Below, one piece after another: positions 230-1,922 of a stretch of DNA of 4,026 bases (position 1 is its first letter; the number at the start of each line of letters is the position of its first letter). Source of the stretch: a virus (lineage: Duplodnaviria > Heunggongvirae > Uroviricota > Caudoviricetes); the IMG/VR virus record IMGVR_UViG_2778261447_000018, positions 1 to 4,026 of that record. One strand, written 5' to 3'. A program made the translations under genes and the position numbers. The notes beneath the pieces were generated by a model. That model saw nothing but the letters and a program-made list of their open reading frames with translations. It had not been told where the DNA came from and made no database searches.

Positions 230-565
230 TTATCGGGCCAGCGGCTGAACGGATACGCCGGAACCCGCAAAGGCGGCGCATTTTTTCGCATCGGTGTCGA
301 CGCTCTCAGGCCAGTTAACGGCAGCAATATTAAATATCCCCGTTTTGTAACACTGTGCTGATTTCTGCTTTGACGTGTCCACGGGGTGAGAAGTCAGATA
401 AACAGCTTTGCCAGATTCCTGACCATCCCACGCCTTAAACTCGCCATTGTCTGCCAGCATCAGCGGGGTAAATTCCTGAATAACGCCAGCATCAGCGGCA
501 AAATGTACCAGCGTCGTGGATACCTGCTGGCTGCCTGCAAATAACTCAATGTATGGAGCGTCCAT
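230..565 (-). CDS. head decoration protein, lambda gpD family (111 aa)
   Basis: ORF from track. The translation contains TPLMLADNGEFKAWDG...WPESVDTDAKKCAAFAG, which matches the conserved core of lambda gpD as I recall it (TPLML...AWDG...WPE...AFAG). Size is right for the family (about 110 aa). The ATG at 565-563 follows a GGGGGA Shine-Dalgarno and sits 11 nt after the capsid stop, suggesting coupled translation. Similarity was judged by eye, not searched. Confidence 0.7.
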   Translation of the reverse strand: MDAPYIELFAGSQQVSTTLVHFAADAGVIQEFTPLMLADNGEFKAWDGQESGKAVYLTSHPVDTSKQKSAQCYKTGIFNIAAVNWPESVDTDAKKCAAFAGSGVSVQPLAR

Positions 566-576
566 AGAATCCCCCG

Positions 577-1632
577 TTAAGCAATTTTGACGGTAACAAA
601 TTTGCGAATATCTGCCGGTACCGGCTGCGGTGCGCTGTGCGTCTGCACGTACTCAATCGCCGGATCGCCGTCCTCAATCCAGTTTTTCGGGTAGTACATG
701 TTTTGCGTTGCGCCCGTTCTTACCGCTTCCTGATCCATAATCGCACCATATGCCACCAGCCCTTTATTGTTGGTGTTACCCAGGACCAGCAAATCAGGCT
801 CAAGGAAATATTTTTCGGTGCCGTCGCTGTCAGTGTATTTGCCGGAATAGACGATAAGGGCCAGATCACCAAGATAGCCTTTAAAGCTCACCACTTCGCC
901 CAGGTTTTTACAGGCCAGCTCGGCGGCGGATTCTGATCCACGGGAAAGATCGTAAAGTTCACGGAATTTTTTAAAGCTGCGTAATGTGCGCCATACCTCA
1001 CCGCCCATAATCATGACGTTGGCGGGGCAACCTGCCTGATCAGCATAAAGCTCGATGTCATAGATTGGGTCGTGCATGTCTTTATCCTGCTGGGACCATT
1101 TTTTACCACTGGCCTGCTGTATGATGCAGTTTTCCGGTATTTTCCAGTCGATTTCATAGCGTTCTATGCCTTCGCCCTCAATGATGTTTTTTCCGGTCGT
1201 TACCGCATTCACCGCCAGCCATTCCACGCGCGCCTTAATGGCGTTTATCTGGCGGCGCATGTTGCCAGTAATCAGGCGCATACGGCGGTAAGTTGGATCG
1301 TTAAGCTGTGCCGGATCTTCTCCAGCCATGCGCATGATGGTCTTTGTTGGATCGATTTCGTGCTTTGGCTTCATGTAGCCAGGTTTGATTGTGCTGGTTT
1401 CGTACCCTTTATCGCGCTGGACCTGACTACCCACCATAGGCGAACAGAACGCTGACATCGTAACCTCTTCAATGTCCAGGGTGTCCAGCATGATGTTTTG
1501 GGTGTTGAAGGTCGCCACGTTCGGGAAAAACAGCGTGGTAAACAGAGGGCTGAATTTAAAATCCGCAATATCCCCGCGATTCAGGTACGCGAAAAGCTGG
1601 TTAGTTGTAAGTGCCGTTGCTTTGCCTGTCAT
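577..1632 (-). CDS. major capsid protein, lambda gpE family (351 aa)
   Basis: Longest ORF in the window. Several blocks match lambda gpE as recalled: KPGYMKPKHEIDP, EDPAQLNDPTYRRMRLITGNMRR, IVYSGKY, YPKNWIEDGDPA. Length is 351 aa against 341 for lambda E. The ATG at 1632-1630 follows GGAGGTGA. The plus-strand ORFs inside it are shadow ORFs. Confidence 0.9.
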   Translation of the reverse strand: MTGKATALTTNQLFAYLNRGDIADFKFSPLFTTLFFPNVATFNTQNIMLDTLDIEEVTMSAFCSPMVGSQVQRDKGYETSTIKPGYMKPKHEIDPTKTIMRMAGEDPAQLNDPTYRRMRLITGNMRRQINAIKARVEWLAVNAVTTGKNIIEGEGIERYEIDWKIPENCIIQQASGKKWSQQDKDMHDPIYDIELYADQAGCPANVMIMGGEVWRTLRSFKKFRELYDLSRGSESAAELACKNLGEVVSFKGYLGDLALIVYSGKYTDSDGTEKYFLEPDLLVLGNTNNKGLVAYGAIMDQEAVRTGATQNMYYPKNWIEDGDPAIEYVQTHSAPQPVPADIRKFVTVKIA

Positions 1633-1838
1633 TATTCACCTCCGTGAACCTGATTGATACCCAGCGCCGCACGTAAATAGGTGCGCACCTGCCAGCCTGT
1701 TGACGGCTCAACCATCGCCAGCGGATCAAGTCCTGCCGCAATGCCTGCTTTTACATTCTGCTGGTGGCGTTCCTTGAGCGCCTCCACGATGTCGGGGCTT
1801 ATGTAGACCGTCACCCCGCCTTTTTTCTCTTCAGCCAT
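1632..1838 (-). CDS. small hypothetical protein (68 aa), translationally coupled to the capsid gene
   Basis: ATG at 1838-1836 with a GAGGAA Shine-Dalgarno 9 nt upstream. Its TAA stop overlaps the capsid ATG (TAATG), and the capsid Shine-Dalgarno lies inside its 3' end. The N-terminal pattern (short beta-like VTVYIS, then a helix starting PDIVEALKERHQQ) is compatible with a ribbon-helix-helix or small assembly factor, but that is speculative. No family recognised. Confidence 0.45.
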   Translation of the reverse strand: MAEEKKGGVTVYISPDIVEALKERHQQNVKAGIAAGLDPLAMVEPSTGWQVRTYLRAALGINQVHGGE

Positions 1839-1873
1839 AGTAAGAAATTCCTCTTTGACTTAAAAAATCATAA

Positions 1874-1889
1874 CTGGATGTTCATCCAG
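1874..1889. promoter_or_regulatory. perfect inverted repeat CTGGATG-TT-CATCCAG overlapping the predicted capsid-operon start site; candidate operator
   Basis: Read directly: 7-bp arms with a 2-bp spacer at 1874-1889, immediately downstream of the -10 on the minus strand. This is the position typical of a dimeric regulator's operator. A 2-nt loop makes an RNA hairpin role less likely. Confidence 0.35.
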
Positions 1890-1894
1890 CTCTG

Positions 1895-1922
1895 ATTATA
1901 ATCATGATTGCATTTTGTGCAA
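1895..1922 (-). promoter_or_regulatory. sigma70-like promoter for the 68-aa/capsid/decoration operon
   Basis: On the minus strand: -35 TTGCAC (1922-1917), 16-nt spacer, -10 TATAAT (1900-1895). The predicted start near 1888 gives a leader of about 50 nt before the ATG at 1838. The -10 sits in the palindrome gATTATAATc, so it also reads TATAAT on the plus strand. Confidence 0.4.

Follow-up and report, generated by a model that had tools for sequence, protein, structure and literature searches.

A lambda-type capsid and decoration gene pair in a probable phage-inducible chromosomal island of the EcCICFT073 family

The stretch of DNA considered here, 4,026 nucleotides of the IMG/VR virus record IMGVR_UViG_2778261447_000018 (hereafter 'the window'), carries a major capsid gene related to that of lambda gpE (E), followed by a decoration gene related to that of lambda gpD (D), next to a primase gene and a replication origin. 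With a probability of about 0.85, it is the replication-to-packaging half of a cos-packaged phage-inducible chromosomal island (PICI) of the EcCICFT073 family, located at the phoQ-proximal site; this estimate bears both on the identification of the element and on its life cycle. E and D are an anciently acquired accessory module, dispensable in the laboratory for transfer and for interference with lambda. The element, the E-D pair and the structure of the capsid protein are already present in the literature, and the layout is the commonest among Gram-negative PICIs. An earlier note, made from the sequence alone, had proposed a candidate phage satellite with E and D as its only head genes, and this proposal is confirmed by the island context and by the relatives. 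The same note regarded the architecture as unusual, which it is not: a capsid gene is found in 21 of the 29 reference Gram-negative PICIs, where it is dispensable for transfer (PMC10111431), and EcCICFT073 was described in 2018, with c1499 named as a putative capsid protein and c1500 as a head decoration protein (Fillol-Salom et al., PMC6092414). The capsid homologue is also noted in Dokland's review.

Identification relies first on the source of the window and its flanks. All 4,026 bases of the window match the end of contig NOCS01000075.1 (assembly GCA_002549495.1) with 100% identity; this contig stops inside the primase gene at window position 4026. Beyond position 1 of the window come, on the contig, a gene for a 146-amino-acid protein of the Rpp family (E=1.7e-32 against RppC, PDB 6HLK), an open reading frame (ORF) of 93 amino acids and then phoQ, phoP, purB, hflD and mnmA. 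The window is ~92% identical to positions 1383285-1387658 of CFT073, namely EcCICFT073, the model Gram-negative PICI (c1498-c1503), with which it shares the phoQ site and the gene order from pri-rep to Rpp. Neither portal, protease, scaffold nor large terminase genes are present in the window or in its own flank out to the chromosomal phoQ, and no portal, protease, scaffold, large terminase or tail genes were found in more than 10 related islands, so that the lack of other head genes nearby, as stated in the earlier note, extends to the contig and to the family. Inspection of the flanks, which that note had suggested, revealed no complete lambdoid structural cluster: the arrangement Nu1-A-W-B-C-D-E-FI-FII-tail, taken from phage 3W for comparison, is missing around E and D, and the Rpp gene and the 93-amino-acid gene are followed by phoQ.

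The relatives, found via protein database and exact-sequence look-ups, are islands of ~10-11 kb organized as int-alpA-...-rep-...-E-D-(x)-Rpp or Nu1-like. A small size (~10-15 kb) and a lack of lysis, tail, portal and large-terminase genes are typical of PICIs, and no such genes lie in the window's own flank or in the relatives. One of these islands (L025), 99.5-99.7% identical to the window, is ~10.3 kb long and encodes an integrase, AlpA, small ORFs, DUF4222 and a 582-amino-acid primase with D5_N, DUF5906 and Pox_D5 domains. The int and alpA genes are present in every relative, L025 included, and the packaging end of the window island abuts phoQ as in EcCICFT073. A scan of species-representative genomes with the capsid protein yielded no confirmed relatives, the peptide patterns used being too specific.

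All credible genes of the window lie on the minus strand, as judged from ORF reading, and the order of transcription is as follows: primase C-terminus, origin, 85-amino-acid ORF, single-stranded DNA-binding protein (SSB), PerC, hairpins, promoter, 68-amino-acid ORF, E, D, c1501 remnant, terminator and cos. The features on which the identification and the discussion of E and D depend are:

577-1632, minus strand: gpE-type capsid gene, 351 amino acids (PF03864), orthologue of c1499 / PDB 3BQW.
230-565, minus strand: gpD/SHP-type decoration gene, 111 amino acids (PF02924), orthologue of c1500.
1632-1838, minus strand: 68-amino-acid ORF, in the position of CFT073 c1498 (phrog_3255).
1895-1923, minus strand: candidate capsid-operon promoter, read from the sequence and from conservation across islands.
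1866-1897, minus strand: inverted repeat or RNA hairpin followed by a T-run, with the core AGCTGGATGAACATCCAGTT at 1891-1872 (fold z = -3.5).
173-217, minus strand: remnant of c1501, 14 codons, from alignment with CFT073 and LH50-c.
133-158, minus strand: intrinsic terminator of the capsid operon, with a 9-bp stem, a GAAA loop and U7, from folding.
58-135, minus strand: cos site, from similarity to lambda cos, with cosQ-like GGGTCCTTTCCG, cosN GGGCGTCGACCT at ~90-101 and the start of cosB.
3316-4026, minus strand: C-terminal 236 codons of a primase/helicase of the P4/D5 family (pri-rep), cut by the contig end.
~3070-3305: iteron origin, where GGTAGA(C/T)A is present at least 12 times, in both orientations, around spacers rich in A/T.

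The packaging and replication signals are those of a PICI. Window positions 58-135 are 84% identical to the lambda cosQ-cosN-cosB junction (E=7e-18), and cosN GGGCGTCGACCT differs from that of lambda by one mismatch. This cos site lies directly between the operon terminator and rppA, in the place where lambda has cos and then Nu1; a helper-type cos is combined with an Rpp gene. At the other end, the primase C-terminus matches the DNA primases of PHROG 864 (E=1e-69) as well as Pfam Pox_D5 and DUF5906 in profile searches, and pri-rep is directly followed by the iteron origin, the position just 3' of pri-rep being that of PICI origins (PMC6092414). The ORFs, the Pfam and PHROG matches and the iterons therefore agree with the description, given in the earlier note, of an E-D pair beside a P4-family primase and an iteron origin.

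In comparison with EcCICFT073, the window island has a mosaic history and lacks c1501 through a 358-bp deletion. The segment lost lies between two TGCCATCGT repeats and corresponds to positions 12212-12569 of L001; the surviving repeat is at 212-220. The c1501 gene (137 amino acids) is present after the decoration gene in CFT073, LH50-c and most relatives, and its product, hypothetical in CFT073, is called 'head-tail connector' in some RefSeq records. Searches with the 137- and 93-amino-acid neighbours from CFT073 gave no PDB or NCBIfam match. The same deletion junction is found, 100% identical, in E. coli ECCNB12-2, PKF11, PKF4 and CM2, and 99.5% identical in GF60; its recurrence in five other E. 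coli genomes indicates a natural allele rather than an assembly error. The standard tetA marker of the model island was inserted within c1501 (PMC6092414), which fits with c1501 being dispensable. The 'tight three-gene operon' of the earlier note holds as a compact unit of the 68-amino-acid ORF, E and D, but its three-gene state is derived. Within this unit, the stop codon of the 68-amino-acid ORF overlaps the start of the capsid gene (TAATG), and the capsid and decoration genes are separated by 11 nucleotides containing a GGGGGA ribosome-binding site.

Membership of the two proteins in the gpE and gpD families, which the earlier note had set as a check, was established by profile and structure-sequence searches. 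The 351-amino-acid protein matches PF03864 (Phage_cap_E) with E=2.5e-50 over profile positions 14-328 of 329 and lambda gpE (7VI9) with E=3e-81, and it is 42.9% identical to the lambda protein (tblastn). The 111-amino-acid protein matches PF02924 (E=2e-17), the SHP protein of phage 21 (1TD0, E=2e-13) and lambda gpD (1C5E, E=1.5e-9). A crystal structure of CFT073 c1499 (PDB 3BQW) is matched over the full length (E=2e-230), with 96% identity to the window capsid protein. Among 50,697 phage records, the closest capsid protein is 47% identical and the closest phage decoration proteins are ~42-44% identical.

Homologues grade from 95% to 52% identity through Escherichia, Salmonella, Edwardsiella, Lelliottia, Serratia, Cedecea and Scandinavium. 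In every relative context that was opened, E precedes D inside a PICI-type island, and this order is kept from 100% down to 52% identity, which answers positively the question of whether the arrangement is shared by related genomes. All phages checked, namely the lambda-like 3W, PhiR12, Aeromonas PCAh2 and Vibrio K245, have D then E within a full head module, so the reversal with respect to lambda that the earlier note had read in the window is general for this comparison. In the record of Vibrio K245, the gene before the capsid gene carries no name. In a neighbour-joining tree, all eight context-verified satellite E proteins fall in one clade (bootstrap 98/100) and the phage E proteins form a clade of their own (88/100). 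The E protein of an island embedded in its helper (L016) is only 33-47% identical to the E protein of that helper. These features mark the E-D module as satellite-specific and old. As a separate observation, a metagenome-derived protein of 463 amino acids (P0032) joins E and D in one reading frame (PF03864 + PF02924); its length is what a 55%-clade island would give on losing the stop codon of E, though this is a single case that could reflect a sequencing error.

Comparison with CFT073 also informs on selection. The ratio of non-synonymous to synonymous substitution rates (dN/dS) is 0.074 for E, where 57 differences are synonymous and 18 non-synonymous; it rises to 0.127 for D and to 0.20 for the 68-amino-acid ORF. 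Values in this range (0.07-0.2) show purifying selection on the three genes. E and D are constrained along their full length, at levels like those of their phage homologues, and the N-terminus of D is conserved and satellite-specific. Should D bind to a lattice formed by the island's own E, full-length constraint and a co-conserved pairing of the two proteins would be expected.

The 68-amino-acid ORF matched no Pfam or NCBIfam family in profile searches and had no homologue in the phage records. Its homologues are restricted to enterobacterial islands, within the sub-clade of at least 63% identity. A scaffold or protease fragment was considered and rejected, because the product does not resemble C/Nu3 of phage 3W, falls in no Pfam or NCBIfam family and has no phage match; the earlier note had likewise held the product to be neither scaffold nor protease. 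It is a satellite-specific gene, translationally coupled to the capsid gene. An AF2 model shows a strand-helix-helix topology (pLDDT 74) and Pfam gives a hint of BrnA (E=0.15); no significant PDB match to the model was returned by Foldseek. The product is possibly a ribbon-helix-helix protein, an assignment from modelling to be taken as a lead only.

Upstream of the capsid operon, a scan for consensus promoters called nothing, yet a candidate can be read as TTGCAC (1922-1917), a 16-nucleotide spacer and TATAAT (1900-1895), with a palindrome ATTGCA-N5-TGCAAT (1923-1907) covering the -35 position. Alignment of E. coli and Salmonella islands indicates that the ~70 bp located 5' of the operon are more conserved than the coding sequence. 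The hairpin at 1866-1897 sits between this promoter and the ribosome-binding site; none of 200 shuffled sequences was as stable, and the inverted repeat, located at about +1, is kept in E. coli and Salmonella islands, more strongly than the coding sequence, and not in L014. It may be an operator, a 5' stabilizing hairpin or an attenuator. An antitermination-controlled terminator was left aside since transcription starting 6-8 nucleotides past TATAAT would begin inside the 5' arm. Related TTGCA repeats occur in 55%-clade islands. The terminator at 133-158 was missed by the consensus scan, though folding shows it clearly. Hence, of the operon's own promoter and terminator announced in the earlier note, the terminator stands by folding, and the promoter, which the scan did not call, is derived from conservation.

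Concerning the life cycle, helper-dependent induction, packaging and high-frequency transfer were shown for the CFT073 island (PMC6092414, PMC6739421), and they are extended to the window island on account of the close identity of the two elements (~92% for DNA and 96% for the capsid protein). According to this scheme, a lambdoid helper would induce the island through AlpA, upon which the island would excise and replicate from its own origin. Rpp, which binds the helper TerS and redirects it to the island cos (PMC6739421), would retarget the helper small terminase, and island concatemers would be packed into full-size capsids for which helper proteins suffice. As to E and D, they are probably functional proteins acting as a pair. 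They would take part in procapsid assembly led by the helper, on its portal, protease and scaffold, and serve there as alternative subunits of shell and cement; their role would be redundant with that of the helper E and D for the helpers tested, and useful with other helpers or when the helper capsid gene is limiting or disabled. This role as alternative subunits is offered tentatively and held to be less likely than not, though it is judged the most economical reading of a pair, capsid and cement, that is conserved together and constrained over the whole fold.

Several points weigh against this scheme, mainly against the part attributed to E and D. Deletion of c1499 or c1500 (Delta-c1499, Delta-c1500) leaves transfer like that of the parent island and does not relieve interference with lambda, the packaged island DNA is phage-sized, and the c1499::cat island still reaches ~10^5 transfers per ml when CFT073 prophage 4 is the helper, 10^3 for lambda and 10^6 for phi80; the authors report no phenotype for c1499 (PMC6092414). 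Expressed alone, c1499 does not inhibit lambda (PMC6739421). A structural role of E and D in the island is proposed in the face of knockouts that display no transfer defect, and at ~43% identity to lambda gpE, the fit of the island protein to the scaffold and portal of a helper is uncertain. As regards the element itself, the contig breaks in the primase gene, and the presence of int and alpA in the window island is deduced from relatives 99.5% identical; similarly, the assignment of TTGCAC-16-TATAAT as the capsid-operon promoter derives from conservation across islands. No later literature assigning a function to c1499 or c1500 was found.

Other roles for the pair can be envisaged. E and D could be facultative, building part or all of the transducing capsid on the helper portal and scaffold with some natural helpers, and this may also be the case when the capsid gene of the helper is limiting, has been interrupted or comes under attack from host defence. 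Such a view is compatible with a module that is old, monophyletic and constrained and has a conserved promoter, and the published negative results cover three related helpers only; it is nevertheless regarded as rather doubtful. If true, classical PICIs bearing the pair would stand, in functional terms, between satellites that only steal capsids and the capsid-forming PICIs.

An interfering role is considered unlikely, in which the E homologue would co-assemble with the helper capsid, alter its size or poison its assembly, and block particular helper or competitor phages. Ccm of SaPIbov5, a cos-packaged staphylococcal island, sets the precedent: a diverged homologue of the helper major capsid protein, it steers assembly towards small capsids and has an interfering effect on the helper. 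PmCI172, which also has a capsid homologue, likewise forms small capsids, and the satellite E lineage is distinct from that of helpers. EcCICFT073, in contrast, uses full-size capsids, the DNA packaged with lambda being phage-sized, and c1499 has no interference phenotype: interference persists after deletion of c1499 or c1500, and among the post-origin genes, each expressed from pBAD18, c1503 (RppA) was the only one to block lambda (Fillol-Salom et al. 2019, PMC6739421). Moreover, the island is about one quarter of the lambda genome in size, a difference handled by concatemer packaging.

A function outside the virion seems more improbable still, with E and D acting as decoys or triggers in phage-host conflict, titrating capsid-sensing defences or opposing phages that are not helpers. 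It would account for strong selection in the absence of a transfer phenotype, and PICIs are described as often carrying defence functions (PMC11364771). On the other hand, the co-conservation of D with E and the constraint over the whole HK97-type fold are better explained by lattice formation than by a decoy, and the two genes sit in the packaging module, away from the accessory end of the island.

The earlier note had put forward, as an example, a satellite supplying shell subunits of its own and taking portal, protease and tail from the helper; read strictly, E and D would then be obligatory for the particle. Intact, full-length and strongly constrained genes with their own promoter and terminator, in islands devoid of other head genes, would suit such a design. 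As a requirement, it is contradicted by the published experiments: the c1499::cat island moves with three helpers, and the behaviour of the c1499 and c1500 deletions and the phage-sized packaged DNA imply that helper capsid proteins are sufficient. An obligatory role is already refuted for these three helpers, and the proposal as a whole retains very little likelihood. Finally, although E and D are lambda-family genes and some genomes have lambdoid prophages nearby, a decaying lambdoid head remnant or a part of a complete prophage can practically be discarded in view of flanks made of the phoQ chromosome or PICI genes, dN/dS values of 0.07-0.2, an identical capsid protein found in 540 collection blocks and at no fewer than four attachment sites, a satellite clade apart from phages and a gene order opposite to theirs.

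With E and D seen as an accessory module of a classical PICI, the window island can be placed among known systems. Helper-embedded PICIs (11capE type; PMC10111431) have the same plan, with E followed by D and proteins of the same satellite clade, as in L016. They differ by integrating inside the late genes of the helper (E in L016), by an E protein of the 55% sub-clade, by the absence of the 68-amino-acid ORF and by an AlpA-like gene after D. In L016 (1511-1786 and 12309-13073), the island splits the E gene of a lambdoid prophage while carrying an E gene of its own. An AlpA-family gene directly 3' of D is also observed in 52-55%-clade islands, and another related island (L018) is found among P2-like tail genes.

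Capsid-forming PICIs (cf-PICIs, e.g. EcCIEDL933) have the same int/alpA/rep backbone and capsid genes in clades apart from phages. Their set comprises an HK97-type capsid protein, protease, portal, connectors, HNH, TerS and TerL, whereas the window island has E and D only; portal, protease, connectors, HNH and TerS/TerL are absent from the window, its flank and the relatives. Unlike cf-PICIs, the window island relies on Rpp and the helper terminase. As for the lambda head genes D and E, their proteins belong to the same Pfam families as those of the island, with 43% (E) and ~36% (D) identity and similar lengths. The order is E then D, with no Nu1-A-W-B-C-Nu3 upstream and no FI-FII downstream, and the island pair would have its own promoter and a satellite-specific small ORF upstream.

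The resemblance to P4, emphasized in the earlier note, comes down to the primase family. The primase/helicase is of the P4 alpha type (D5_N/DUF5906/Pox_D5), and some RefSeq records name it 'phage/plasmid primase, P4 family'; in addition, P4 is a cos-packaged satellite, and an Icd-like gene is present in relatives of the window island. P4 has another gene plan, reshapes the capsids of P2 and codes for no capsid protein of its own, and no sid, psu or delta was found among the Pfam and PHROG matches of the window genes or the gene calls of complete relatives. With a lambda-like cos and Rpp next door, the element is a classical Gram-negative PICI and not a P4-like satellite; independent origins of PICIs and P4 have been argued (PMC6092414).

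The remaining features of the window belong to the unit located upstream of the capsid operon:

2769-3026, minus strand: protein of 85 amino acids (phrog_1231), function not assigned, which adjoins SSB in related islands too.
2362-2772, minus strand: SSB, 136 amino acids (PF00436, E=1e-16; phrog_44).
2079-2351, minus strand: PerC-family regulator, 90 amino acids (PF06069, E=1.7e-38).
2001-2072, minus strand: two hairpins closing the replication/PerC transcription unit (scan match 2072-2055; fold -41 kcal/mol, z = -5.2).

For the PerC-family gene, a longer ORF of 130 amino acids, with a GTG start and extending to 2471, overlaps the SSB gene by 110 bases, and the PF06069 match begins at its residue 41. 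This form is probably too long; that of 90 amino acids, starting from the ATG at 2351, fits the Pfam match and the RefSeq and public annotations.

Comparison of the islands also brings out their composite nature. The identical capsid protein occurs at its various chromosomal sites in islands with interchangeable replication modules, containing either a P4-family primase or a RepA-type helicase. The window is itself a mosaic, with a late module 98.4% identical to those of islands at other sites and an origin/primase region closest to that of LH50-c. The late module SSB-PerC-68aa-E-D of E. coli (E-D alone in Serratia L017) is paired with three replication initiators, namely the P4-family primase (window 3316-4026), a RepA/AAA_25 helicase (L003/L004 16466-17872) and DUF927 (L017 6364-8451), and its attachment sites are phoQ, tqsA, rcnR/thiM, a site near rpoD and the allantoin region. 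PICI islands with this late module are modular mosaics. A Phage_Nu1 (TerS-like) gene takes the place of Rpp in some islands (L008 12036-12578, L013 10678-11235, L015 10948-11490). Lastly, the origin region (3193-3302) contains an extra iteron block of ~89 bp with respect to L025 (repeat D4, spacing 89), a variation in iteron copy number between near-identical islands.

The present analysis adds to the knowledge of this family the cos site, the loss of c1501, the satellite E clade, the fixed E-then-D order, the coupled 68-amino-acid ORF, the palindrome at the promoter and the signs of purifying selection. It leads to a puzzle, namely that a satellite riding in capsids made by its helper keeps E and D under strong selection across Escherichia, Salmonella, Serratia and related genera. 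The answer would show whether classical PICIs join in shell building or use their capsid homologues otherwise.

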